Shown here: positions 2,521 to 61,474 of the stretch, in pieces
Position numbering within the stretch: the stretch's first letter is position 1
Layout: every line of letters begins with the position of its first letter
Assembly: GCA_009697105.1 (NCBI GenBank)
Contig: SIAQ01000011.1
Location: 1,551 to 65,550 of the forward strand
DNA from: Gemmataceae bacterium
Lineage (GTDB): Bacteria; Planctomycetota; Planctomycetia; Gemmatales; Gemmataceae
Length of the DNA: 64,000 nucleotides
Reading direction: 5' to 3'
Program-made: the position numbers and the translations under genes
The notes under the pieces: generated by a model
The model's input: the letters and a program-made list of their open reading frames with translations, nothing else
Database searches by the model: none
What the model was told of the DNA's origin: nothing

Positions 2521-3723
2521 CTACGCTACATCGCGGTCTTCAAACAAAATCAATCCGCCCAGCAGCGCGATCGTCGTATAGATCAAGGCATAGATAGCCA
2601 CGTTCAGCGTGTACAACGCATACCGCGTCGGATCGGGCGGCGTCTCGCGCACGATGGCGGTGCTCACGTCAAAGAACGGCAGGCCGGGCAGCAGCAACTC
2701 GAACAGTTGAGCCACGAATTGCACCAGAGCCAGGCCCTGGCTGACTTCTGTCATCACCGGCGCCAGATGCCCGAGCAGATACACCACCAGGCACATCGAA
2801 ATATTGACGACCATCGGCAAGCGAGTCGCCAGCGCCACGCTTACCGCGAGCAGCGTCGCCACCTGGCCGAACCCGATCACCAGGCCCGGAAACGCCTCGT
2901 CAAAGTCACGAAGCCAAAGCCCGAAGCCGCGAAGCAGGTCGCCCGGCGTCGTTCGTTCATAAGTGCTTGCAAGCAGTGACGACAGCCATTCCGGGTCCGG
3001 CGGCGTTTGCGTCACGCCCTGCATGAAGTCATAGTTGAATTTCGCCAAATGCACCCAGACGAGTACGTAGCCCATCGACATCGTCATCCCCATCGCCGCC
3101 AACAGGATCCCCAGATACTTGCCCAACAAAAAGTCACGCCGCGTGATCGGTTTGCTCAGGAGCGTGACGGCGGTGCGCCCTTCGATCTCTTCGCTTACCG
3201 AAACGCTCGAGGAAATGACGCCAAAGATCGCGGGAATCATCATGGTCAAAGCATACGTGATCTCCTTGACCATCTTCACGTCTTCGCCGAACGTGAAGTA
3301 CGGGATGACGATCGACACGACCATTCCCAGTGTGCCAAGGAACGTCAATAGCCAAAACATCGGCTGGCGAACGCCTTCTTGAAACGCTGCCAACGCAACG
3401 GCGCCACCCTTGGACCAAAACGTCAGCATGGAGAAAAACGCGAGCACGAACAAATCGATGCCAAGCTGAAAGAGCAGCACGGAGCCGTAAAATCGGCCCC
3501 ACAAGGCGACGACATCTGGATCGCTGTTGCCCTGAAGGATGAACGCGAATGGAATTCCGCACAGCGCCGTGATGCCGACAACCTTGCCATAGAACGGCAA
3601 GCGAGCGCGGAACGTCTCGTAGGAGAGCGCCCGCAACCACGGCAGGGCGGCCAGGCCTTGCACGAGAAACAGCACCATGCACAACGGAATCAGTTGGATC
3701 ATTGCGTCATTCCCGTATTTCAA
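2521..3723 (-). CDS. ABC-2-type transporter permease-like polytopic membrane protein (no ATPase partner nearby)
   Basis: Multi-TM 400-aa ORF with SEEIEGRTAVTLLSKPITRRDFLLGKYLG, typical of ABC-2/NosY-like permeases. An alternative start at 3702 would remove the 17-nt overlap with acyP. Confidence 0.65.
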   Translation of the reverse strand: MKYGNDAMIQLIPLCMVLFLVQGLAALPWLRALSYETFRARLPFYGKVVGITALCGIPFAFILQGNSDPDVVALWGRFYGSVLLFQLGIDLFVLAFFSMLTFWSKGGAVALAAFQEGVRQPMFWLLTFLGTLGMVVSIVIPYFTFGEDVKMVKEITYALTMMIPAIFGVISSSVSVSEEIEGRTAVTLLSKPITRRDFLLGKYLGILLAAMGMTMSMGYVLVWVHLAKFNYDFMQGVTQTPPDPEWLSSLLASTYERTTPGDLLRGFGLWLRDFDEAFPGLVIGFGQVATLLAVSVALATRLPMVVNISMCLVVYLLGHLAPVMTEVSQGLALVQFVAQLFELLLPGLPFFDVSTAIVRETPPDPTRYALYTLNVAIYALIYTTIALLGGLILFEDRDVA

Positions 3724-3976
3724 AAGCCGCGAAATCGCCCGCCGGCTGCTCGGAGATATCTACGTCGTGAATATTGTTCGCCATTCGTGCGGAGACGCCA
3801 GCGATGAAGCGGTCGACTTCATCCGCCTCGCCCTGCGCCACCAACTCGACCGCGCCGTCCGGAAGGTTCCGCACGAACCCAACGACGACATGCCGGCGAG
3901 CGATGCGCTGCGTCGTCATGCGAAAGCCAACGCCCTGCACGCGGCCACGGAACAAGACTCGTTTGCAAACCGGCAT
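3707..3976 (-). CDS. acyP: Acylphosphatase
   Basis: 89 aa with VLFRGRVQGVGFR and the GFVRNLPDGAVE signature. Confidence 0.85.
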   Translation of the reverse strand: MPVCKRVLFRGRVQGVGFRMTTQRIARRHVVVGFVRNLPDGAVELVAQGEADEVDRFIAGVSARMANNIHDVDISEQPAGDFAAFEIRE

Positions 3977-4000
3977 TGTGTTAATACGTTTGGTCTCGCC

Positions 4001-4846
4001 TCACGGTTCGCCACGATAACTTGGCGGCGTGCCCCAGCGAAGTTTTTCCCGTAGAGTTTGATAATAGCTATGCCCCGGAACCTTGACCAACTGAAAGCAG
4101 GCCGATGCCTTGCGGATCACCATTCTGTTCCGCGACGAGACCTGGGCGGCACTTTGCCCATCGACTACGACCTCGGCCAGGCTCGCCTCGCGGGCCAGGC
4201 GAATCGTGTACGTCTTCTCCGCCGACTCGACGATGGGTCGATACGTCAGCGTATGCGGGCAGATCGGCGTGATGACGAAGGCCGCCAGTTCCTGTCCCAA
4301 AATCGGTCCGCCTGCCGACAGATTGTGCGCCGTCGAGCCGATTGGTGAACTGACGATCAGTCCATCGCCATTGAACCGCGACATGACCTCGCCATTCACT
4401 TCCAACTCCAACTCTAACATCCGCAACGGCGGCGAAGCGTGTACGACGACCTCGTTCAATCCCAGCACGGTCTGCGGATCATGACCTGGCGTTTCAATGA
4501 CGCACTCGAACATCAAATGCTGCGCTACCTTGTAGTTGCCTTGCAGCACTTGTTCGATCGCCGCATTGAAATCCGTGGGATGAATGTCGGCCAAAAAACC
4601 CAGCCGACCGAGATTTATGCCGAGCACCGGAACCTGCCGATAGCCCATCTGCCGGGCGGCACGCAGAATCGCGCCATCGCCGCCGAACACGAGTGCCAAG
4701 TCGGCATTGGGCAACGTCGAAAGCTCCGCCTCCTGCCGCAGGTCAACGGCGAGAACGTCGAACTTTTTGCGCAACATTGGCAGCCAGCGCTCGACCTCGA
4801 CGGCGACGCCTTCCCGAGCAGCGTTTCCGAGTACGAAGACTTTCAC
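4001..4846 (-). CDS. nadK: NAD+ kinase
   Basis: GGDGAILRAAR and NLGRLGFL motifs. GTG start. Confidence 0.9.
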   Translation of the reverse strand: MKVFVLGNAAREGVAVEVERWLPMLRKKFDVLAVDLRQEAELSTLPNADLALVFGGDGAILRAARQMGYRQVPVLGINLGRLGFLADIHPTDFNAAIEQVLQGNYKVAQHLMFECVIETPGHDPQTVLGLNEVVVHASPPLRMLELELEVNGEVMSRFNGDGLIVSSPIGSTAHNLSAGGPILGQELAAFVITPICPHTLTYRPIVESAEKTYTIRLAREASLAEVVVDGQSAAQVSSRNRMVIRKASACFQLVKVPGHSYYQTLREKLRWGTPPSYRGEP

Positions 4847-4934: not shown

Positions 4935-6404
4935 CTACGGTGCCCCGACCTGTTCCCGCGCCGCAGCCACCTCACGCTCGCGCATCGTGTTGAAGCGTCG
5001 CCGATACTCCGCGACCTTTGGCGACAATTCGACACGCCGATACCGCCCCCACGTTCGATCGGCTCGCGCCGATTGATCCTGAAAGTTCTCGCGGTACACG
5101 ATGCGGCCTTGCTCGACGAGTTTAACGAACAACGGCTCCGCATCGATCGATTCCGACGCATCGGCGACGATCAAGGCATCGTCCTTGCCGAACACTCGCA
5201 GGTAGCCGCCGAGCGATTCCTTGCCCGGCGTGTTCGAGAACTTCACGTTGGGATGTTCGCCCGTCGCGCTGCGTTTGAACGCGGCAGCAACTGTGTCACG
5301 ATGGATCAGCCGCCACCAGTAGCCACCGGCGCCGGGGAACAGCATCGTCGGCTCGAGGCCCGTGGATGTACGGAAAAAGTCGTACACATTGCGGACCGTC
5401 TCCGGCGATACTTCGTCCTCGAACACAATCGTTCTCGGCGACATGCCCGCCTCGCGCATTTTGCGGAAATAGAGCACGCACTGAGCCGCGATATCGCCCG
5501 AATCGACGCGGATGCCGACCTCGCTCGTCTCGGGATGATTGCGGATGACACGCAGAGCATTCTCCAGGCCGACCGATTCCGCATCGACGAGATCGCACAG
5601 CAGCGATGCCTTGCCCATCGCCGACACGAAGCGATCCATCATTTCATATTCCGCCTCGCCGAGCGTGCGGTCGAACGATTGGCCGGCACACATCATCTCA
5701 TGGCCGATCGTGCCGACGGATTGAAAGAGATCGGGAAAGAGAAACTCGGCCGTGTCGTTGGAGGTCAGCCGACCGCCGCCGCCGACGTAGCGTGCTAATA
5801 GCAGCGTGATATTGAGCGCCTCGCACGGAGCCGAGCGCAGCCCGAACTCGGCGTCTCGCGGCGTCGCCAACTTCATCAGCCGGCCTTTCGTCGCCCACAG
5901 GATCGGCGCGAAATAGCGGCACATCGCAGGTTCGAGGTACGAAATCGCCCCGCCCATGCCTTCAAAAAACAAGCACGGCAACCCCGGCAGAAACGTCTGC
6001 CCGCCGGGGAAGCCCCATATGTCGATCGGCAAATAAACGTCATCGCCGGCCTGCGATGCCATCACTGCTTGCCAAAGGGCACTCGGAAACGCCTTCGCCG
6101 TCGCGTGTTCGCGAAACCAGCGCTCCGCCAGCACGATGTCATCCCGCTGCAATGGCCGATGAAACCACTGCGCGAGCATGGTCTCATGCCCCGCCATGAT
6201 GAGTTGATTGTCCGCCCCCGGTTCCGGCAAGCCCTTCCGCATCGTCAAGCCATAGCCCGCATGGGCGACAGCGACATCCGGCACGGCGGCCCACATCGTA
6301 CGTTTGTAGGTATCGGTCGCCCCGAGCCAACCGCCGAGCATGAAGAACTTGGCGTAGTATTCCTCGATCATCGCAGCGCGTTTGGGAGCAAATGGATCGG
6401 ACAT
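4935..6404 (-). CDS. Nicotinate/nicotinamide phosphoribosyltransferase family protein
   Basis: 489 aa with an N-terminal TDTYK motif. The length and context next to nadK fit the NAPRT/NadV family. Subfamily not resolved. Confidence 0.65.
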   Translation of the reverse strand: MSDPFAPKRAAMIEEYYAKFFMLGGWLGATDTYKRTMWAAVPDVAVAHAGYGLTMRKGLPEPGADNQLIMAGHETMLAQWFHRPLQRDDIVLAERWFREHATAKAFPSALWQAVMASQAGDDVYLPIDIWGFPGGQTFLPGLPCLFFEGMGGAISYLEPAMCRYFAPILWATKGRLMKLATPRDAEFGLRSAPCEALNITLLLARYVGGGGRLTSNDTAEFLFPDLFQSVGTIGHEMMCAGQSFDRTLGEAEYEMMDRFVSAMGKASLLCDLVDAESVGLENALRVIRNHPETSEVGIRVDSGDIAAQCVLYFRKMREAGMSPRTIVFEDEVSPETVRNVYDFFRTSTGLEPTMLFPGAGGYWWRLIHRDTVAAAFKRSATGEHPNVKFSNTPGKESLGGYLRVFGKDDALIVADASESIDAEPLFVKLVEQGRIVYRENFQDQSARADRTWGRYRRVELSPKVAEYRRRFNTMREREVAAAREQVGAP

Positions 6405-6505
6405 GCGGTTCGCTCGTGAGGATGGAGTGATTATCGCTGCTGCTCATCTTACGCACGACCGAGCATTCGTCGTAGAGCGAGCGTTGCCGCAGCCTGATCT
6501 CTCTT

Positions 6506-6529
6506 GGCAATGATGGCTAGAATTATCCG
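6506..6529 (+). promoter_or_regulatory. Promoter-like motif GGCAATGATGGCTAGAATTATCCG (TAGAAT box at 6518-6523)
   Basis: Almost identical to the motif immediately upstream of tRNA-Thr at 46914-46937. No good -35 box seen. Confidence 0.25.
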
Positions 6530-6743
6530 TCAGCTTCTCTCTATATTTCGCCGCTCTGAGGTTGTGATTTTTTTGACGTTCGGGAAGAACTGAATAGGGC
6601 AACGTTGCTTCCTCAGTTCGACAAAATCAATCCGGAGCGATTTTGTGCGGTTGTTTTTCACGCCGTCGCTCAGATTTTCCAAACGGTCAATAAAAATCAC
6701 AAGCTCGCCGCACTGCATTCTTCGAATGCAACAACTCTTTTGA

Positions 6744-6864
6744 TTTACTTCAACCGGATGAAATTGTCTGGTCCGAGCCTGAGCGCCAGCGAAGGGCACA
6801 TCGCGACCCTTTGCTGGCGCTCAGGCTCTGAAAATGCAACAATCTCAACCCCCCCGTAGTATAC
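6744..6864. repeat. Palindromic repeat, family B (core GAGCCTGAGCGCCAGCGAAGGG ... CCCTTTGCTGGCGCTCAGGCTC), extended about 120-nt element
   Basis: Core hairpin at 6775-6828. The flanks (GATGAAATTGTCTGGTC / TGAAAATGCAACAATCTCAAC) are conserved in the copies at 9397 (inverted) and 12711. Confidence 0.8.
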
Positions 6865-8110: not shown

Positions 8111-8118
8111 TGATGAGG

Positions 8119-8172
8119 CCGCTTGCGGCTTAGCGCTCGCGTGGTGCCTTGCGTGTGCTGAGCCGCAAGCGG
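8119..8172. repeat. Palindromic repeat, family D (CCGCTTGCGGCTTAGCGCTCG ... GCTGAGCCGCAAGCGG)
   Basis: Inverted arms. Related copies at 24542, 42349, 50181, 53785, 58101 and 44475. Confidence 0.8.
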
Positions 8173-8285
8173 CAATCATTTCGGATTTTCAAACCACTCT
8201 TCGGCCTCTAACCACTCCCGTCCGTGTGCGTACAATGAGGTGTCACGATTATACCAATGAATATTTCCGCAGAAAGGAAACGGAC

Positions 8286-8627
8286 ATGGCTGGTGCGAAT
8301 GTATTGGAGTTTACCAAAGACAATTGGCAGAAGGAAGTCGTTGAGAGCGCGGTCCCTGTGGTCGTCGATTTTTGGGCGCCGTGGTGTGGCCCTTGCCGGG
8401 CGCTGACGCCGGCGATCGATAGCATCGCGACGAAATACCTCGGCAAAGCCAAGGTAGGCAAAGTCAACGTCGATGACGAGCAAGACTTGGCCGTCAACTA
8501 TGCCATCACAAATATTCCGCGTGTTCTGGTTTTCAAAGGCGGAGACAAACCGCGCCGATCAATCGTTGGCCTAGTCAGCGAAGCGGAACTGAGCAAAACG
8601 CTCGACAGCGTCATCGCGGAAGTATAA
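8286..8627 (+). CDS. trxA: Thioredoxin
   Basis: WCGPC active site in a 113-aa protein. Start set at ATG 8286, since the longer ORF would read through repeat D. Confidence 0.9.
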   Translation: MAGANVLEFTKDNWQKEVVESAVPVVVDFWAPWCGPCRALTPAIDSIATKYLGKAKVGKVNVDDEQDLAVNYAITNIPRVLVFKGGDKPRRSIVGLVSEAELSKTLDSVIAEV

Positions 8628-9396: not shown

Positions 9397-9519
9397 CTTA
9401 TACCGCGAGCGGTTGAGTTTGTCGCATTTTCAGAGCCTGAGCGCCAGCGAAGGGCACAACGCGGCCCTTCGCTGGCGCTCAGGCTCTGACCAGACAATTT
9501 CATTCGCTCGAAGTATAAG
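9397..9519. repeat. Family B element (inverted orientation relative to 6744)
   Basis: Core at 9433-9486, with terminal inverted repeat CTTATACCGCGAGCG / CGCTCGAAGTATAAG. Confidence 0.8.
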
Positions 9520-14018: not shown

Positions 14019-14099
14019 AAGCCCAGAGGTGAGGTACTCCGAACCTCTGGGATCACCTTGAATGATCCTAAGGGTTCGGAGTGCCTCACCCTTGGGCTT
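14019..14099. repeat. Family F element
   Basis: AAGCCCAGAGGTGAGGTACTCCGAACCTCTGGGAT ... AAGGGTTCGGAGTGCCTCACCCTTGGGCTT. Confidence 0.85.
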
Positions 14100-14278
14100 G
14101 CACGCCTATTTCCACCTGTTTGGGAAACCTTGGCAATTCGTGCTTGCATCCGGCGGATACATCTCTAAAATCGCGGGAATTGGATTGACGCTCCACCGCC
14201 CTCACTGCCGCAACGGTTTGGCCGATTTCCGCTAACCATACCCGCATCAGCGAACCTCTCACGCAGAACGCGAGAACT

Positions 14279-16165: not shown

Positions 16166-16180
16166 CCGATGTGCATTCCT

Positions 16181-16224
16181 GTTTACGTTTAGCGCTCGCG
16201 CGGCACCGTGCGAGCGCTAAACGA
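16181..16224. repeat. Family D variant (GTTTACGTTTAGCGCTCGCG ... CGAGCGCTAAACGA)
   Basis: Inverted arms. Sister copy at 27586. Confidence 0.75.
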
Positions 16225-16246
16225 ATAATCGCCGAAGGGTACTGCC

Positions 16247-18496
16247 ATGCGATTCCACTTTGCCATCCCATTTATCGGATTCCTCTTCACGTCAGCCCTC
16301 CACGCCGGCGAGCCGAACGTCTGGACCAAGCTGCCCAAGGCTGAGATCATTGGCCAGCGCTCGGATATTCCGCTCGGCTATGACAGCATCGCCAAGCGGT
16401 TCGTCATTCTCGGCGGGCGCACGAATTACGGCAACTATCGCAAGCCGCGCTCGTATGATACGCTGACACTCGATACGAAATCGTTCGTATGGGAGAATAC
16501 GTATCCTTCGGGCAAGGACTGGGGTCCCGCCGTCGGCCCCTGCCAGGCGCCGGCGTGGAAAGGCGAGGTCTGGGGCTTCCGCGACGCCGAGGGCAACACC
16601 AGGCCGAACTGGACCATCTACGGCACGTTCTCGCTCGGCCAAAAATACGACTTGGACCCCGATACCAAAGCGTTCTACTTCTACGCCGGCGGCAGCACCT
16701 TCAAGTACGATCCCGCCGAACGCAAATGGACCGACCTGCAACCTGCGATGCATCCCGAAAAAGCACTCAACGGGCGGTTACTCTGGAGTTCGATGGTCTA
16801 TGACGCTCACAACAAACAGTTCCTCCTCTTCGGCGGCGGGAACGTCGAATCCGAGCGCGGCGACCCCGGCACCTGGACCTACTCGCCCGCACGCAATGCC
16901 TGGACGCAACTGAAGCTAGACGTGCAGCCGCCACAACGCGCCAACTCGCGTCTGGCGTATGACCCGCTCGCCAAGAAGATCGTCCTCTTCGGCGGCGATC
17001 AGCTCGATCAACTCCTGTCCGATACCTGGACCTTCGACGTCGTCACGCAGCGCTGGGAAGAGGCGGCAATCGCCAACGATGTCGCGCCATCTCCGCGCGG
17101 CGGGCATGCGCTGCTTTGGCTGCCGAGCGCTAAGAGGATTGCCCTAATAGGTGGATACACCTACACATCCACAATCGGCTACACGTCGTCGCTCTATCAG
17201 CGATTGCCCAATGAGATATGGACGTATGACATCGCCACGCGGCGCTGGCAGTTGATCCGGCGAAGTGGCGTGAAGGAAGGCCCGGATACGCCGACGAATT
17301 TCTTCACCAGCGCGGCTGTCGATGAAACCGATCGCGTGGTCTTACTCGGCCAAACCGGAACGTGGACGACGACGCTCGACATGACGAAAGCCGACGACGC
17401 CGGGAACAAGAAATTCGGCGTCAAACCCGGCACGACCGAGCGGCGCGAAGGGCCACACGATCCAAGCTGGTACATCAAGGGCGTTCCCGATGCCGATCCC
17501 GCCAAGGTCGCCGCCGAGTTGAAGGACTTGCCCGCGAACGCCTGGAAGATCCGCCCCACGCCCAAACTGCCCGGCCCGAACATGGACTGGGGTTCCGCGG
17601 TGTTCTCGCCGGAACTCGACCGGATCATGCGCTTCTCCGGCGGTCATTCCGCCTACAGCGGCACGGCGCCGCAGGTGTACGACGTGAAGACCGACCGCTA
17701 CGCGATCCCGTTCGTGCCGGAGTATCCGCTCGAATATGTCTACAGCAACGATCAAGTCAACGGCGAATGGAGCTTCAAGAAAAACCCGTGGATGACAGGC
17801 CACACTTACAAATCGACCGGCTACGATCCGCGTCTCAAGGCGTTGGTGTTCGGTCCGCACGAGTACACCTACTTCTTCGATCCGCTGGAGAAACGCTGGT
17901 CGCGCTCACCGACGAAGAATCCGTATCGGCCCAACTTCTACGTCGTCACCCTATGCACGACGCCCGACGGCGTGATCGCCTGGGCCAACGAACGCCAGAG
18001 CGGCTCACCGGGCCTTTGGCGATTGGATGCCACATCGCGCACCTGGAAGGCGTTGCCACTCAAAGGTGAGATGCCGGCGACGAGTGCTGACCACCACGGT
18101 ATGGCGTACGATGCGAAGCGCGATCGCCTGCTGCTTTTCAGCGACATCGGCAAGAACAAAGGCGACGTGTTGGCGTACGATTTCAAAGCGGGCAAAACGC
18201 AATGGCTCAACGCCGCCGGCCGCGACAAGGCACTGGAACATTGCCGGGAGACGGTCTATTTGCCGGAGCAAGACGCGGTGCTGATCGGTGCCCGCATGCC
18301 CGGCGAAAAAGGCTGGATGCTCTACGACTGTGCCGCCAACGCCTGGCGAGCAATACCGTTTGCAGGCGACGATCCGCTCGGCAAAAGAGAGTTCAACAAC
18401 TCGATGGGCCTGATGTACGACCCGACCCGCCGATTAGTTTGGGCCGTCGGGCAGAATAGCCACGTGCACGTATTGCGAGTGACGAGTGACAAGTGA
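16247..18496 (+). CDS. Secreted Kelch/galactose-oxidase-like beta-propeller repeat protein
   Basis: Signal peptide. Recurring blades ending in LLFGG/VLFGG/LIGG followed by W(T/E)(Y/F)D motifs. Confidence 0.7.
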   Translation: MRFHFAIPFIGFLFTSALHAGEPNVWTKLPKAEIIGQRSDIPLGYDSIAKRFVILGGRTNYGNYRKPRSYDTLTLDTKSFVWENTYPSGKDWGPAVGPCQAPAWKGEVWGFRDAEGNTRPNWTIYGTFSLGQKYDLDPDTKAFYFYAGGSTFKYDPAERKWTDLQPAMHPEKALNGRLLWSSMVYDAHNKQFLLFGGGNVESERGDPGTWTYSPARNAWTQLKLDVQPPQRANSRLAYDPLAKKIVLFGGDQLDQLLSDTWTFDVVTQRWEEAAIANDVAPSPRGGHALLWLPSAKRIALIGGYTYTSTIGYTSSLYQRLPNEIWTYDIATRRWQLIRRSGVKEGPDTPTNFFTSAAVDETDRVVLLGQTGTWTTTLDMTKADDAGNKKFGVKPGTTERREGPHDPSWYIKGVPDADPAKVAAELKDLPANAWKIRPTPKLPGPNMDWGSAVFSPELDRIMRFSGGHSAYSGTAPQVYDVKTDRYAIPFVPEYPLEYVYSNDQVNGEWSFKKNPWMTGHTYKSTGYDPRLKALVFGPHEYTYFFDPLEKRWSRSPTKNPYRPNFYVVTLCTTPDGVIAWANERQSGSPGLWRLDATSRTWKALPLKGEMPATSADHHGMAYDAKRDRLLLFSDIGKNKGDVLAYDFKAGKTQWLNAAGRDKALEHCRETVYLPEQDAVLIGARMPGEKGWMLYDCAANAWRAIPFAGDDPLGKREFNNSMGLMYDPTRRLVWAVGQNSHVHVLRVTSDK

Positions 18497-18506
18497 AAGC
18501 GATTCG

Positions 18507-18567
18507 TATATAGCCCGCCATTTATGGCGGGTTCGACTGCAAACCCGCCATAAATGGCGGGCTATAT
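18507..18567. repeat. Family A palindrome
   Basis: TATATAGCCCGCCATTTATGGCGGG ... CCCGCCATAAATGGCGGGCTATAT. Confidence 0.85.
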
Positions 18568-18615
18568 GGGAACGAAAACGAGTTCCGCCAATCGCAGATT
18601 TTTTCGCAACCGACT

Positions 18616-18645
18616 TTGACAGCCGATCATGCCGCGCGTTACGAT
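18616..18645 (+). promoter_or_regulatory. Sigma-70-like promoter candidate TTGACA-N18-TACGAT inside the direct repeat
   Basis: Hexamers read directly. It points toward the toxin-antitoxin cassette. Confidence 0.3.
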
Positions 18646-18869
18646 CAAAAAAATCGCCGGCAAGCCCCAGGATGATCGCAGCGATTCCTGGGGGTGGAGC
18701 GTCATAAGAAACCTGCGAAATCGAGCCAACAATCCTTGACACGCCACCGCGAGTCTGGTCAAATGCCCTTGGTATAGCGCGCAGTAAGTTGCTCGATCGA
18801 GGCGGTGTGACGGGGCTGATCTGGTTGTCAGCGTGCGTCCACGATATGATGAACAGAAAGGAAGCAGCC

Positions 18870-19121
18870 ATGATCGAAATGACCGAACAGCAAATGCAGG
18901 CGTTCGAGACCCTGGACGTTACCCCGCCGCGCATCGTCAACCCCAGGACCAAAGAGGCTTTTGTGATGCTGCGCGTTGACGAATACGAGCGGCTGAAGGA
19001 GGACGAATACGACGACAGCCCCTGGACGAGCGAGGAGCGCCATGCGCTCGCATGGGAAGCGGGCAAGCATGCGGGCTGGGAGGAGATGGACGAATACGAC
19101 GACCTCCCGGAGAAGCCATGA
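18870..19121 (+). CDS. Putative antitoxin of the MazF/PemK-type module
   Basis: 83-aa acidic protein. SD-like AAGGAAG lies 7 nt upstream. Its stop overlaps the toxin start (ATGA). Confidence 0.6.
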   Translation: MIEMTEQQMQAFETLDVTPPRIVNPRTKEAFVMLRVDEYERLKEDEYDDSPWTSEERHALAWEAGKHAGWEEMDEYDDLPEKP

Positions 19122-19468
19122 ACCGGGGCGATGTGATCTTGGTCCGATTCCCACATCCGTCTGGGGTCCGTGGGAAGAAACGGCCTGCCGTGGTCGTGCA
19201 GTCCGACGCCTACGCGGGAGCTGTCAGCACGGTCGTTGTCGCCGAAGTAACGACGAACCTCGCGCTGGTGGCCGACCCCGCCTGCATGTTCATCGACATT
19301 AATACGCCCGACGGAAAGGCCACTGGCTTAATACACGATTCGGTTCTGTCCTGCCTTCTGCTTGCGACGGTGGACGCCGACAAGATTGCACAGAAGCTCG
19401 GATCGCTGTCACCAGCCATGAAGCAAAAGCTCAACGACTGCCTCAAAGCGGGGCTGGGTATACCTTAA
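19118..19468 (+). CDS. MazF/PemK-family type II toxin (mRNA interferase)
   Basis: MNRGDVILVRFPHPSG..KKRPAVVVQSD...V.VAEVTTN fits the PemK/MazF N-terminal signature. Confidence 0.8.
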   Translation: MNRGDVILVRFPHPSGVRGKKRPAVVVQSDAYAGAVSTVVVAEVTTNLALVADPACMFIDINTPDGKATGLIHDSVLSCLLLATVDADKIAQKLGSLSPAMKQKLNDCLKAGLGIP

Positions 19469-19480
19469 CCGGCGCGAATC

Positions 19481-19496
19481 GGCACCTATCGGTGCC
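19481..19496 (+). terminator. Short hairpin GGCACC-TATC-GGTGCC after the toxin gene
   Basis: 6-bp stem with no U-tract, so this is weak. Confidence 0.25.
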
Positions 19497-19568
19497 TCGT
19501 CTGGGCCGTGGGGCAGAATAGCCACGTGCACGTATTGCGAGTGACGAGTGACAAGTGAGAGCGATTCG

Positions 19569-19629
19569 TATATAGCCCGCCATTTATGGCGGGTTCGACT
19601 GCAAACCCGCCATAAATGGCGGGCTATAT
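19569..19629. repeat. Family A palindrome
   Basis: Identical to the copy at 18507-18567. Confidence 0.85.
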
Positions 19630-19677
19630 GGGAACGAATACAATCCCCGCCAAGCGCAGTTTTTTTCGCAACCGACT

Positions 19678-19707
19678 TTGACAGCCGATCATGCCGCGCG
19701 TTACGAT
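19678..19707 (+). promoter_or_regulatory. Second copy of the TTGACA-N18-TACGAT promoter candidate
   Basis: Duplicate of 18616-18645. It points toward the repeat array and the ORF at 20010. Confidence 0.3.
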
Positions 19708-19848
19708 CAAAAAAATCGCCGCCAAGCCCCAGGATGAACGCAGCGATTCCTGGGGGTGGAGCGTCATAAGAAACCTGCGAAATCGAAAAACCATTCTTGA
19801 CAACGGCCAGCGGATCGCTTCTACTACAATAAACTGGCCGGCACTTGC

Positions 19849-19940
19849 ATACGCTGACTGGGAGGCCTGAATACGCTGACCGGCGCGGCAAAATACGCTG
19901 ACCGGCGCGTACATACGTTTACCGGCTCCGGTCAGCATAC
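19849..19940 (+). repeat. Iteron-like tandem array of ATACGCTGACCGGCGCG (four direct units at 19849, 19871, 19893, 19913, plus an inverted partial unit CCGGTCAGCATAC)
   Basis: Read directly. Spacing is 22, 22 and 20 nt. Confidence 0.75.
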
Positions 19941-20009
19941 TCAGTAGTTCGGCTTGGTTCTCGCGCGGCTTCGGGTGGCATTGTTCTCGCGCGACAAAGA
20001 GGTCTGGCG

Positions 20010-20513
20010 ATGCGTTTCTGGTCGTGGATTAGATCTATGTTCGTGACCAAACCTCCGATGTTGCCGCGCGACGTGCCGGCGTTGCAGGCGGACCCTGATG
20101 ACCGCCTCTTCCACTTCGCTGATTGCGAAGGTGTGATCTTCCGCAAAGGGGAAGGCTGGGAGTCAAATCATTGGTACTTTTCAGCCTGGACACCATCGCG
20201 AGAGGAAATCCGGTCTGCCGAAGAGCGGTTGCCCACCTTCTTGGGAGAGTTAGCGAAAACGTGCGTGGAAAAGTACGACGCGGAGTCAGCCCAGCTCATT
20301 GCAGCGACGTTGAATACCTACCTTCGTCAGTATTTTGGGATCGTAATTGGGGAGCAACAGGTAGTGTTCATCAACTTTTTTACACGCGACTTCGTCGAAA
20401 ACTGGATGACTGAGCCTGTCATCGTCTGTGATGGTGGATGTAATTTTTTTCAGGTGATTTATAGACCGACGCAGGGGGATTTTCAAAGCTTCACGGTCAA
20501 CGGTGAAGCGTAA
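20010..20513 (+). CDS. Hypothetical protein (orphan, no family recognised)
   Basis: 167-aa ORF with SD-like AAAGAGG upstream. The region looks locally AT-richer than its surroundings (by eye). Confidence 0.5.
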   Translation: MRFWSWIRSMFVTKPPMLPRDVPALQADPDDRLFHFADCEGVIFRKGEGWESNHWYFSAWTPSREEIRSAEERLPTFLGELAKTCVEKYDAESAQLIAATLNTYLRQYFGIVIGEQQVVFINFFTRDFVENWMTEPVIVCDGGCNFFQVIYRPTQGDFQSFTVNGEA

Positions 20514-20723
20514 AGGGTAGCGGGGGACGTACCGCCGAACAGTTCTATGCCCCCTAAAGGTTGAACTACGTTCCTTCCTCGGCGACGATTCCGAATGATT
20601 TTCCGCGTCAATGTCATTGCAATCGGGCTTCAGGCGAAGAATGTGGCGATCGCCGATAATGTGCGGCGAGACTGTTTTAATTCGGTTTACTTCGCCACGC
20701 ATGAGTAAGGAGAGGTGACTGCC

Positions 20724-20939
20724 ATGAGCCAAGTCATTCCATTTGGCGAAGTCTTGGAAGCTGCCGATCATCTGTCGATAGATGAGCAGCCGGAATTAAT
20801 CGCGGTTTTGGCCCGAAGGTTGGCACAAGCCGGCCGGCAGCGCGTGGCAGCCGACGTTCAGGAGGCCCGCCAGGAATTTGCAGAAGGACGCTGTACACCT
20901 ACCACCCCCGAGCAAATGATGCTTGAGATTCTGCAATGA
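20724..20939 (+). CDS. Putative RelB/ParD-class antitoxin (small helical protein)
   Basis: 71 aa with a strong SD (AAGGAGAGG) 8 nt upstream of ATG 20724. Its stop overlaps the next ATG (ATGA). Confidence 0.6.
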   Translation: MSQVIPFGEVLEAADHLSIDEQPELIAVLARRLAQAGRQRVAADVQEARQEFAEGRCTPTTPEQMMLEILQ

Positions 20940-21096
20940 AGCGCGTGCTTATCAAGTCGGCGGCCTTGGAGAGTTGGCTGGATCATGGGCTAGCAGGGGC
21001 GGGTATGACCTGCGAATTGTGTTCGAGTTCGTCCAACACGAAGGCGTCGAGGCGATCCAGTTGCAATCGGTCGGGACGCACGATGAGGTCTATTAG
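20936..21096 (+). pseudogene. RelE/ParE-family toxin remnant (internal deletion plus frameshift)
   Basis: The start frame gives MKRVLIKSAALE. A different frame gives GGLGELAGSWASRGGYDLRIVFEFVQHEGVEAIQLQSVGTHDEVY-stop, a typical RelE/ParE C-terminus. About 40 central residues are missing. Confidence 0.6.
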
Positions 21097-24541: not shown

Positions 24542-24601
24542 TTTTCGCTTGTGGCTTAGCGCTCGCGTGGCGTGAAGTGTGCGCTAAGCCACAAGCGAAA
24601 A
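24542..24601. repeat. Family D element (TTTTCGCTTGTGGCTTAGCGCTCGCG ... GCGCTAAGCCACAAGCGAAAA)
   Basis: Inverted arms read directly. Confidence 0.8.
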
Positions 24602-32140: not shown

Positions 32141-32228
32141 CAAGCCCCAGGATGAGCGAAGCGATTCCTGGGGGTTTCGTTACCGATGCTTTCACCCCCA
32201 CCAATCGCTTCGCTCATGATGGGGCTTG
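32141..32228. repeat. Palindromic repeat, family H (CAAGCCCCAGGATGAGCGAAGCGATTCCTGGGGG ... CCCCCACCAATCGCTTCGCTCATGATGGGGCTTG)
   Basis: Sits in the coxM-coxS intercistronic gap. Sister copy at 35569, with half copies at 18661 and 19723. Confidence 0.85.
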
Positions 32229-32237
32229 GCAAGGTGA

Positions 32238-35515: not shown

Positions 35516-35568
35516 GGAATGCTCCTGCGAGGGTTTTTATGCGTGGATCGGTATTATATAAACGCAGC

Positions 35569-35657
35569 CAAGCCCCACCATGATCGTAGCGATTGGTCGG
35601 GGTGAAATGTGCGGGAGCTTCGACCCTCACCAATCGCTGCGCTCATGGTGGGGCTTG
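35569..35657. repeat. Family H element
   Basis: CAAGCCCCACCATGATCGTAGCGATTGGTCGGGG ... CCCTCACCAATCGCTGCGCTCATGGTGGGGCTTG. Confidence 0.85.
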
Positions 35658-35672
35658 GGGATTGAAGTGATG

Positions 35673-42155: not shown

Positions 42156-42348
42156 GGAATCCTCCGCCGTGTGAATTCGTTTCGCGTTCGCGAAGATGTC
42201 ACAGACGTTGAGCTATGGAATTGAACCCGATAGGCGCGAATGCGAAGGTAGACGATTACGCAGCGGCGGCAATCTGCTTGGACGTGAACTGGCAAACGAT
42301 GAGGGAGTGAGGAAAACGAGAGAAGTGCGGAACTTCCAAAACTCGTTT

Positions 42349-42402
42349 CCGCTTGCGGCTTAGCGTTCGAATAGCACCAAGCGAGCGCTAAACCGCAAGC
42401 GG
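42349..42402. repeat. Family D element
   Basis: CCGCTTGCGGCTTAGCGTTCG ... CGAGCGCTAAACCGCAAGCGG. Confidence 0.8.
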
Positions 42403-42422
42403 AAAACATCTGTTGAAGAACG

Positions 42423-50160: not shown

Positions 50161-50180
50161 GGCGTTGGTACTTCATTCTT

Positions 50181-50234
50181 CCGCTTGCGGCTTAGCGCTC
50201 GCATCGACCATTCAGAGCGCTAAGCCGCAAGCGG
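50181..50234. repeat. Family D element in the def-fmt intercistronic gap
   Basis: CCGCTTGCGGCTTAGCGCTCGC ... GAGCGCTAAGCCGCAAGCGG. Confidence 0.85.
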
Positions 50235-50252
50235 CAAAGGCAGATTCACGTT

Positions 50253-53741: not shown

Positions 53742-53784
53742 GGTCGTGTGCCTATGTTAGCGTGGGCGTCGAAATTATTCTCTT

Positions 53785-53838
53785 CCGCTTGCGGCTTAGC
53801 GCTCGAAATAGCTCACGCGAGCGCTAAGCCGCAAGCGG
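53785..53838. repeat. Family D element in an intercistronic gap
   Basis: CCGCTTGCGGCTTAGCGCTCG ... CGAGCGCTAAGCCGCAAGCGG. Confidence 0.85.
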
Positions 53839-53850
53839 AATGCCTGTTTC

Positions 53851-56434: not shown

Positions 56435-56495
56435 TTTTAGCCCACCATTTATGGCGGGTTGGTAGTCAAGCCCGCCATAAATGGCGGGCTATTTT
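56435..56495. repeat. Family A palindrome in an intercistronic gap
   Basis: TTTTAGCCCACCATTTATGGCGGG ... CCCGCCATAAATGGCGGGCTATTTT. Confidence 0.85.
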
Positions 56496-61382: not shown

Positions 61383-61456
61383 TGGGGTGAGGTACTCCAA
61401 ACCCTTGGGATAATCCGGCTGATCCCAGCGGTTCGGAGTACCTCACCATTGGGCTT
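61383..61456. repeat. Family F element
   Basis: ATGGGGTGAGGTACTCCAAACCCTTGGGAT ... CAGCGGTTCGGAGTACCTCACCATTGGGCTT. Confidence 0.8.
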
Positions 61457-61474
61457 CCGTCAAGCAGAGAACAC

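Follow-up and report, generated by a model that had tools for sequence, protein, structure and literature searches.

The closest described systems are the insertions with long target duplication that Kobayashi's group described for restriction-modification genes (Furuta, Abe & Kobayashi 2010, NAR 38:2428, PMC2853133), with an earlier description cited in that paper (Nobusato et al. 2000, Gene 259:99). There, an insertion of this kind has direct repeats of more than 30 bp, a repeat that occurs once at the aligned empty site of a relative and is not multi-copy in the genome, and an insert of less than 20 kb that carries restriction and modification genes and no mobility gene in or beside it (PMC2853133). 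In the examples given, the left and right repeats are identical at 417/423, 384/412 and 368/393 positions, and insertion between pre-existing repeats is treated as a separate class (PMC2853133). DNA double-strand breakage by the restriction enzymes was proposed as a common cause, and the mechanism of these insertions is still not known (PMC2853133).

We analysed a stretch of 64,000 nucleotides, here called the window, in which direct repeats that duplicate the 3' end of a Kelch-repeat gene bracket a small toxin-antitoxin (TA) cassette. We favour the view, held at about even confidence, that this is a strain-variable insertion of roughly 0.77 kb, made up of promoter, antitoxin and MazF, with a long target duplication, and that it entered by recombination rather than through a transposase or integrase. 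The features of the locus are as follows.

16247 to 18496, forward strand: Kelch-repeat gene, 749 aa (Pfam Kelch families, 1e-34), the target whose 3' end is duplicated
18437 to 18724, forward strand: left repeat copy, holding the true last 19 Kelch codons and the stop; weaker similarity runs on to 18741
18503 to 18572, no strand: REP-like double-hairpin palindrome A in the left copy; dispersed, also at 399-459, at 56438-56492 and in the right copy
18616 to 18645, forward strand: promoter-like site TTGACA-18-TACGAT, a consensus match only; second copy at 19678-19707
18652 to 18698, no strand: a single arm of palindrome B, which is dispersed and present whole at 32141-32229 and 35560-35658
18725 to 18869, forward strand: upstream region of the cassette, a putative promoter/operator; in homologous cassettes at other sites, conservation is limited to 18820-18869
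18870 to 19121, forward strand: ORF of 83 aa, acidic at its C-terminus and always paired with the toxin; candidate antitoxin
19118 to 19468, forward strand: MazF/PemK-family toxin, 116 aa (PF02452, 2e-17), overlapping the antitoxin gene at ATGA
19469 to 19498, forward strand: 30-nt spacer from the toxin stop to the right copy; its last 8 nt are GCCTCGTC
19499 to 19786, forward strand: right repeat copy, with the orphan Kelch 3' end at 19499-19558; similarity runs on to 19802
19846 to 19944, forward strand: three direct ATACGCTGACCGG motifs and one inverted, 94% conserved in the sister species
20037 to 20513, forward strand: 158-aa gene, function not assigned; an unrelated gene of 228 aa stands here in the sister species
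20715 to 21096, forward strand: second small TA-like pair, apparently decayed; weak similarity only

The second TA-like pair occupies the place of a repeat-bracketed VapBC in the sister species, and the interval between the Kelch and S8 genes resembles a small cassette array.

A repeat search of the 64-kb window and our own comparison gave a gap-free direct repeat of 288 nt at an offset of 1062, with 12 mismatches between the copies (276/288 identical, 95.8%; BLAST E = 6e-134) and a stretch of 79 nt without differences. A preceding sequence-only reading had described an ungapped repeat with about a dozen mismatches at this offset, and our count agrees with it. The same reading gave an extent of 285 nt; the right ends stand as described, and both copies begin 3 nt sooner. 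As a result of this earlier start, the left copy, correctly recognised as holding the Kelch gene end, covers the last 19 codons and the stop instead of 18. The right copy, as had been claimed, still encodes VWAVGQNSHVHVLRVTSDK followed by a stop, with no gene body 5' of it.

The borders of the repeat are fuzzy. Gapped BLAST extends the similarity to TTGACA at 18741/19802 (305 nt, 94.4%), and the divergence between the copies is concentrated at both borders. The 8 nt 5' of the right copy, GCCTCGTC, are the Kelch sequence of the sister species, where the resident Kelch gene has GATTAGTT; the true start of the right copy therefore lies before 19499, and the resident patch is derived under every model considered below. 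At most mismatch positions it is the right copy, more than the left, that resembles the outgroup and the empty allele; the alleles of the empty form are known at 2 of the 12 variable positions, the two inside a 59-aa ORF.

Within these borders the unit is composite, containing a double-hairpin palindrome A of about 60 nt, strong in each copy with arms of 31 nt, and half of palindrome B. A search of Rfam returned only sub-threshold matches to plant miRNA precursors, located on the palindrome, which we dismissed as hairpin artefacts. The full-length unit is present in 2 copies only within the 64-kb window, although two dispersed palindromes lie inside it. Within the window the whole unit is not a dispersed repeat, the outcome that would have spoken against the earlier reading, though dispersed REP-like palindromes form part of it. 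Because the promoter-like site falls inside the duplicated repeat, the cassette and the downstream gene each have one.

The insert between the copies is 774 nt long and contains two ORFs and, probably, an upstream promoter region. The ORF and Pfam results bore out the claim that only a small acidic ORF, the candidate antitoxin, and a MazF/PemK toxin with an ATGA overlap lie there. The toxin matched PF02452 at 63.6 bits (cut-off 23.1) over residues 3-111, and in the PDB it matched MazF6 at 8e-9. It has 1892 homologues, and nearly all are 116 aa among the 120 matches listed. The antitoxin candidate could be placed in no known antitoxin family (Phd/YefM reached 17.8 bits, below the Pfam cut-off of 29.8), and searches gave no NCBIfam match and no solved structure in the PDB at E < 0.1. 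The 83-aa gene precedes and overlaps the toxin gene in every context with gene calls that we read, and in most of the roughly 80 loci the DNA common to homologous cassettes takes in both genes. We regard the pair as a candidate type II toxin-antitoxin system of the MazEF/PemK kind. The GC content of the cassette, 0.59-0.64, is like that of neighbouring core genes and gives no foreign-DNA signal. A tblastn search of the toxin against PLSDB and the GenBank phage collection found no match that would point to a plasmid or phage carrier.

All sequences that we compared are short-read metagenome assemblies. The occupied structure is found with identical spacings in two independent assemblies, namely the window (part of an NCBI MAG contig of 68,532 nt, with the Kelch protein deposited as MSU77174.1 from a Gemmataceae MAG) and an ENA contig of 60,033 nt that keeps a constant offset of 9117 from the window and whose Kelch protein differs by one residue. 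An empty allele is present on an 11,114-nt contig from ENA sample ERZ1305449, the same sample as the occupied ENA contig. Its 749-aa Kelch protein is identical to the window's, and its 59-aa ORF equals the right-copy version. Relative to the window, this contig is offset by 16196 ahead of the site and by 17258 past it, so that exactly 1062 nt are missing, as judged by gene coordinates and exact protein identity. At the DNA level, sister-species contigs L006, L012 and L013 lack mazEF and have one copy of the Kelch end and of the repeat's 3' 200 nt; the target is present there and palindrome A is absent. A further contig, L094 (P0125), breaks off just 3' of the Kelch gene. The empty site, which the sequence-only reading had named as the check on its proposal, is therefore found on the 11,114-nt contig and on the three sister-species contigs. 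We conclude that the insertion is polymorphic, being present in some strains and absent from others.

Short-read metagenome data, with an empty contig in the same sample, raise the concern of an assembly artefact, in which a small circle or strain chimera was threaded through the 79-nt identical stretch and the chromosome is really empty. The left end of the empty contig lies inside a REP element (16176-16233), and the window joins the empty contig's Kelch allele to the cassette, both of which fit such a concern. We consider an artefact highly improbable, however, because two different assemblies agree on structure and spacings and 12 mismatches separate the copies. In addition, a 1062-bp circle would have no replication gene, and analogous structures are present in unrelated contigs, with the VapBC version recovered twice independently (L012 and L013, from two samples).

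The footprint recurs at several TA cassettes of related bacteria. Planctomycete cassettes bracketed by duplications of 84-343 nt include MazEF, DUF433/DUF5615 and TacA-like ones, as well as the VapBC of the sister species. The VapBC arrangement, seen in L012 and L013, has a 148-nt duplication (88.5%) whose downstream copy lies 7 nt past the stop codon. The duplication in L050 (192 + 74 nt) begins 17 nt past the stop. In L090, a gene 3' end is present in three nested copies around DUF433/DUF5615 and DUF6932 + MazEF cassettes, and the downstream copies begin 29 and 3 nt past the respective stops. Further bracketed cassettes are found in L022/L024 and in L055 (343 nt, 96.5%); for an empty-site comparison at L055, the adjoining DUF1501 protein had no relatives above 80% identity. 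Overall, the downstream copy usually starts 3-30 nt past the toxin stop codon, and does so in six cases. The repeats of L012, L050, L055 and L090 are unrelated in sequence, and the two loci scanned for inverted repeats, L012 and L090, had none. A shared GCCGCCGAAC core at the repeat starts (L012 and the window's second TA-like pair, with a similar one in L022) was considered and dropped. This motif has 5 occurrences in the window against 0.5 expected, and its other copies resemble ordinary coding sequence.

About 80 unrelated contexts contain homologous cassettes, at 70-85% nucleotide identity. What these have in common at the DNA level is limited to 18820-19479, indicating that the TA pair moves as a minimal unit. 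Flanking repeats are not universal in this TA family, being absent from L001, L002, L004 and most metagenome loci, and thus other ways of moving or persisting exist.

We then considered whether the cassette landed by chance between pre-existing repeats, the segment being already tandem or the copies being merely REP clusters. The two dispersed REP-like palindromes in the unit are in keeping with this reading, as is the recognition of such insertions as a class of their own (PMC2853133). We judge it quite unlikely, since the unit includes unique Kelch coding sequence and the empty alleles and sister species have one copy, not two. It would also require two independent events at the same nucleotide, a coincidence that would have to be repeated in L012, L050 and L090, and no cassette-free Kelch-repeat-repeat tandem was seen in related genomes.

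No recombinase, transposase or integrase family was recorded within 10 kb on either side of the insert, in agreement with the earlier statement that no recombinase is present, and the repeat search detected no terminal inverted repeats at the insert ends. We rejected a transposon or insertion sequence, given the lack of terminal inverted repeats and transposase and a duplication that, at 288 nt, is not short. An integron/attC cassette was likewise rejected, on the position of the repeats and the nearby gene content: the repeat borders are far from the palindrome and in coding DNA, no integrase lies within 10 kb, and the other loci with this footprint have repeats of unrelated sequence. Chromosomal integrons commonly carry TA cassettes. 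This background, the strong palindrome with 31-nt arms in each copy and the array-like Kelch-S8 interval would suit site-specific recombination by an integron-like, Xer-like or other recombinase encoded elsewhere, with the palindrome as an attC- or dif-like site. Against this, the palindrome is separated by 66 nt and 152 nt from the repeat borders, which extend into coding sequence, and the sister species has the target without the palindrome. The unrelated repeats of the other loci, the lack of inverted repeats in the two scanned and the lack of an integrase within 10 kb also speak against it, and we regard a recombinase acting from elsewhere as very doubtful.

[quoted passage not shown] In the account that we favour, the insert would arrive together with a second copy of a target of about 290-320 bp, comprising the Kelch end and a promoter-like site along with one REP-like palindrome and half of a second REP. 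The donor would be DNA of a related strain that already had the cassette linked to a copy of the target segment. A circularised fragment could enter by a single crossover (Campbell-type), or a fragment could enter by homology-facilitated illegitimate recombination, with one end anchored by homology and the opposite end joined illegitimately; either would yield copy-cassette-copy automatically. The arrangement would survive because the left copy preserves the Kelch gene and the right copy leaves the downstream gene with its promoter region. RecA recombination between the copies could later excise exactly 1062 bp as a circle and restore the empty allele, or could instead amplify the unit; loss would be selected against through the addiction property of the TA pair. 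The structure, the polymorphism, the lack of a recombinase gene nearby and the recurrence at other TA cassettes are observed; we infer the route of entry, as well as excision, amplification, promoter use and toxin activity.

Import of the repeat is favoured by the finding that the copies are 4% apart although the Kelch protein is the same in the occupied and empty alleles. It is also favoured by the ancestral GCCTCGTC beside the right copy, as against the resident GATTAGTT, and by the clustering of divergence at both borders. The donor arrangement, a cassette beside a single copy of the target, was not found among the sequences compared. In addition, the fuzzy borders would be explained about as well by a duplication that arose in place long ago and had its core homogenised by gene conversion.

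A duplication made in place is the reading given for restriction-modification genes (PMC2853133), and here it would mean that the copies were first identical and diverged later, with empty alleles either ancestral or later deletions. A linear TA fragment could have been captured at a break with staggered ends of about 300 nt that were then filled in, or a replication fork could have switched to a TA-bearing template and re-entered about 300 nt upstream (microhomology-mediated break-induced replication). The TTGACA common to the right border is a possible microhomology, clusters of border mutations are expected from error-prone break-induced synthesis, and the position of the downstream copy, 3-30 nt past the toxin stop in six cases, is compatible with this reading. 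On the other hand, 4% divergence and 4-5 substitutions within 11 nt of a functional Kelch gene would have to follow the event, while the Kelch protein of a coexisting empty allele is identical. As RNases, MazF and VapC could not supply the DNA break proposed for restriction enzymes. We also know of no bacterial enzyme that makes staggered cuts 300 nt apart. Taken together, we consider duplication in place unlikely, though a serious alternative to imported DNA.

The locus resembles the restriction-modification insertions in that a small addiction-type unit without a mobility gene lies between repeats of tens to hundreds of bp that are single at the empty site of a sibling; there, too, the repeat in some cases includes part of an adjacent gene at its 3' end. 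Measured against the description in PMC2853133, the direct repeats here are 288 nt, the repeat occurs once at the aligned empty site of a relative, the full unit has 2 copies in 64 kb with two dispersed palindromes inside it, and the 774-nt insert has no mobility gene in or beside it, but the cargo is an antitoxin and a MazF toxin and not restriction and modification genes. The locus differs further in its host, a planctomycete (Gemmataceae), in its type II TA cargo and, among the examples gathered, in a downstream copy that begins no more than about 30 nt past the toxin stop. Full-text searches of the open-access literature found no report of TA cassettes with long target duplication. The suggestion that the mechanism may be uncharacterised is thus right for the mechanism and not for the footprint, which was already known from restriction-modification genes.

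Other known systems share parts of the pattern. Campbell-type (insertion-duplication) integration gives the same copy-insert-copy product, leaves the gene intact if the fragment holds its 3' end and is likewise reversible by homologous recombination, but the insert here has no plasmid backbone or replicon. Integron TA cassettes, as in the Vibrio superintegron, are also promoter-bearing minimal units with palindrome-containing repeats between them, arrayed at one locus; unlike attC sites, the repeats here are made of target DNA specific to the locus, coding sequence included, and there is no integrase close by. Genomic islands at the 3' ends of tRNA or protein genes similarly duplicate the target 3' end and leave the gene intact, but use their own integrase and a defined core site, neither of which is present at this 0.77-kb insert.

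The movement of chromosomal TA pairs between sites and genomes without mobility genes of their own is poorly explained. The locus provides a clean pair of occupied and empty alleles out of one metagenome sample, and a footprint documented before only for restriction-modification genes is now seen around several unrelated TA families. We tentatively propose, as a possibility well short of a conclusion, that minimal TA cassettes of Planctomycetota, and perhaps addiction modules generally, restriction-modification included, spread by a dedicated recombinase-free route. In this route, 80-340 bp of target would be duplicated, the toxin-side junction would lie within about 30 nt of the stop, gene 3' ends would be preferred, and the repeats would then be used for circle excision, re-integration and amplification. 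If so, the RNase toxins would mean that the process is independent of DNA cleavage by the cargo, contrary to the restriction-enzyme idea. If general, the signature of cassette, long target duplication and empty site could be surveyed and is also testable in the laboratory, and addiction modules would share a recombination-based means of movement that works without DNA breaks made by their cargo.

The cassette lies between the two copies of a gap-free 288-nt direct repeat, offset by 1062 nt and differing at 12 positions (E = 6e-134 by BLAST). The sequence-only reading had proposed that these repeats duplicate the 3' end of the neighboring Kelch-repeat gene, and this was borne out. The left copy holds the true final 19 codons and stop of the gene. 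As that reading had described, VWAVGQNSHVHVLRVTSDK-stop can still be read in the right copy, although the rest of the gene is missing there. The antitoxin and toxin reading frames, joined by an ATGA overlap, were likewise found between the copies. The features of the region are as follows.

16247-18496: Kelch-repeat gene, 749 aa (NCBI protein MSU77174.1)
18437-18724: left repeat copy
18870-19121: antitoxin candidate, 83 aa, acidic
19118-19468: PemK/MazF toxin, 116 aa (Pfam, 2e-17; solved MazF6 structure, 8e-9)
19499-19786: right repeat copy

The full repeat unit occurs only twice within the 64-kb window. It is composite, and its parts from left to right are the Kelch gene end, palindrome A, a promoter-like site and one arm of palindrome B.

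Palindrome A: ~60-nt double hairpin in the repeat; dispersed, with further copies at 399-459 and 56438-56492
Promoter-like site (putative): TTGACA-18-TACGAT, after palindrome A
Palindrome B: single arm in the repeat; dispersed, with whole copies at 32141-32229 and 35560-35658

The borders of the repeat are fuzzy, as similarity runs on with a 1-nt indel to TTGACA at 18741/19802. The 8 nt preceding the right copy, GCCTCGTC, are identical to the Kelch gene of the sister species; the resident Kelch gene reads GATTAGTT here. Across 19466-19558, the orphan Kelch 3' end of the right copy is in the reading frame of the toxin with only a TAA stop between them, such that read-through would add 29 residues. 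The shared frame is probably a coincidence, with a chance of one in three.

The intergenic REP-like palindromes of the window fall into five or more families, with the following examples.

Set 1: 8117-8174, 16176-16233, 24543-24600, 42347-42404, 50179-50236, 53783-53840
Set 2: 2436-2510, 14029-14103, 61386-61460
Set 3: 6772-6831, 9430-9489

The Kelch C-terminus also varies between species, ending in LRVTSDK in the window and in LRIAD in the sister species (18479-18584 compared with 8230-8292 of the sister-species contig L006). The difference sits exactly where palindrome A is present in the window and absent in the sister species, and this REP element may, on inserting, have reshaped the gene's terminus.

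We detected 1892 homologues of the toxin; among the 120 that were listed, almost every one is 116 aa long. Family and structure searches returned no above-threshold family match for the antitoxin. Cassettes with 70-85% DNA identity occur in about 80 unrelated contexts, and the DNA they have in common is limited to 18820-19479, a segment that begins about 50 nt upstream of the antitoxin gene and ends about 10 nt beyond the stop codon of the toxin. Thus, the toxin-antitoxin (TA) pair behaves as a minimal mobile unit. The flanking repeat is absent at most of these loci. [quoted passage not shown] At one locus (L066), a 370-nt direct repeat with 91% identity (3684-4053 and 6279-6648) extends from upstream of the antitoxin gene into the first part of the toxin gene. 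Rather than a target duplication, this seems to be a paralogous second cassette copy 2.6 kb downstream.

The sequence-only reading had proposed searching related genomes for an empty site, and we found one. The window comes from a 68,532-nt contig of an NCBI Gemmataceae MAG, and the occupied structure is also present on a 60,033-nt contig of the ENA metagenome sample ERZ1305449, with a constant gene-coordinate offset of 9117 and a Kelch protein that differs by one residue. An 11,114-nt contig of the same sample carries the empty allele. When the alleles were compared by gene coordinates and protein sequences, its Kelch protein was identical to that of the window and the offset was 16196 before the site and 17258 beyond it, a deficit of exactly 1062 nt. 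Its 59-aa reading frame is identical to the right-copy version (19691-19870). The empty contig starts inside the REP-like palindrome at 16176-16233, which probably explains where its assembly broke. Empty sites were also found in three sister-species contigs (L006, L012 and L013), in which the Kelch gene is about 86-88% identical to that of the window. In these contigs the Kelch end and the 3'-terminal 200 nt of the repeat each occur once, and mazEF and palindrome A are both absent. At most positions where the two copies differ, the right copy agrees with this outgroup.

The gene families recorded within 10 kb to each side of the insert include no transposase or integrase, in agreement with the earlier observation that a recombinase is absent, and the insert has no terminal inverted repeats. 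We favor entry of the cassette assisted by homologous recombination. A circularized fragment carrying the cassette and a copy of the target could have integrated in a Campbell-type event, or the fragment could have used a homologous anchor on one side and an illegitimate join on the other. The main rival is duplication in place, by staggered-break fill-in or a replication template switch, with later divergence and gene conversion. Three observations argue for entry by homologous recombination: the copies are 4% apart, yet the occupied and empty alleles encode identical Kelch proteins; ancestral bases persist at the right copy immediately beyond the repeat; and the divergence is clustered at both borders. 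Under either route, selection can account for the occurrence of these insertions at gene 3' ends: the gene stays intact through the upstream copy, and the promoter of the neighbor is preserved in the downstream copy. Repeated movement together with selection for function would trim cassettes to a unit running from promoter to stop codon. Recombination between the copies would be predicted to remove exactly 1062 bp, to release a circle and to amplify the unit in tandem.

Gene content varies between the Kelch gene and the S8 peptidase gene. The window has mazEF there, followed by a 158-aa gene and a TA-like pair that looks decayed; L012 and L013 carry a VapBC pair and a 228-aa gene with no relation to the 158-aa one. 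The segments that hold the 158-aa and 228-aa genes (19954-20531 and 8600-9318 of L012) lie between conserved flanks, a promoter region on one side and a linker on the other. Neither gene has an above-threshold family match, and the swap is a cassette-like replacement. Three direct ATACGCTGACCGG motifs and one inverted motif (19846-19944) lie downstream of a promoter-like TTGACA-17-TACAAT site and are conserved in L006 and L012 at about 8490-8600. Identity to the sister species reaches 94% in the non-coding DNA of 19645-19953, compared with 86% in the adjoining Kelch coding region, pointing to a regulatory element or an array of binding sites under constraint. The second TA-like pair (20715-21096) includes a 74-aa reading frame weakly similar to the addiction-module component TIGR02574 (E = 0.05), followed by a RelE-like frame that appears frameshifted, and is flanked on both sides by CCGCCGAAC (20532 and 21100). 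The pair resembles a cassette that has decayed within this variable interval.

A 148-nt direct repeat, with 88.5% identity and a spacing of 1221 nt, in turn flanks the VapBC pair, and the same arrangement is present in L013, from a second sample.

L012 9317-9463 and 10538-10684: repeat copies (same in L013)
L012 9893-10530: VapBC pair, 87 aa and 125-aa PIN toxin

The downstream copy begins 7 nt past the PIN toxin stop, and the repeat has one homologue in the window (20532-20590). We also scanned 80 metagenome loci fetched with the toxin, a set biased toward finding bracketing. At L050, the repeat measures 192 + 74 nt, a TacA-like second cassette splits the upstream copy, and the downstream copy begins 17 nt past the stop codon. 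At L090 (174-2730), the 3' end of the upstream gene is present in three nested copies that separate a DUF433/DUF5615 pair from a DUF6932 plus MazEF block, with downstream copies beginning 29 and 3 nt past the stops, a pattern suggestive of repeated insertion at a single site, each time with target duplication. L022 and L024 have a 135-nt repeat, with the downstream copy 5-12 nt past the stop. At L055, where the contig end limits the reading, a 343-nt repeat (96.5%) has its downstream copy in the 3' portion of an intact DUF1501 gene. The tight junction on the toxin side is the most striking regularity among the bracketed cassettes. In about 143 kb not selected for TA genes (the window and loci fetched with the Kelch protein), a small sample, there are only two direct-repeat pairs of at least 100 nt, and each brackets a TA cassette.

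The mechanism had been considered possibly uncharacterized. The footprint has been described for restriction-modification genes by Kobayashi's group, who named it insertion with long target duplication (PMC2853133); Nobusato et al. 2000 is cited for it there and in PMC2654758. In those insertions the repeats exceed 30 bp and are often 370-420 bp with 93-99% identity, the empty site holds a single copy, mobility genes are absent, and the 3' end of the neighboring gene is sometimes overlapped (PMC2853133). The authors noted that such repeats permit amplification, and they proposed that DNA double-strand breaks made by the restriction enzyme are connected with these insertions (PMC2853133). The mazEF locus differs in its TA cargo, its RNase toxins and its planctomycete host, and our searches of an open-access library found no report of TA cassettes with this footprint. 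Taken together, we conclude that the feature is real and that the overall sequence-only reading is supported. The locus is a TA version of a known, mechanistically unexplained form of gene mobility, with hints that it recurs, and its interest would be greater if a systematic survey confirmed these regularities.
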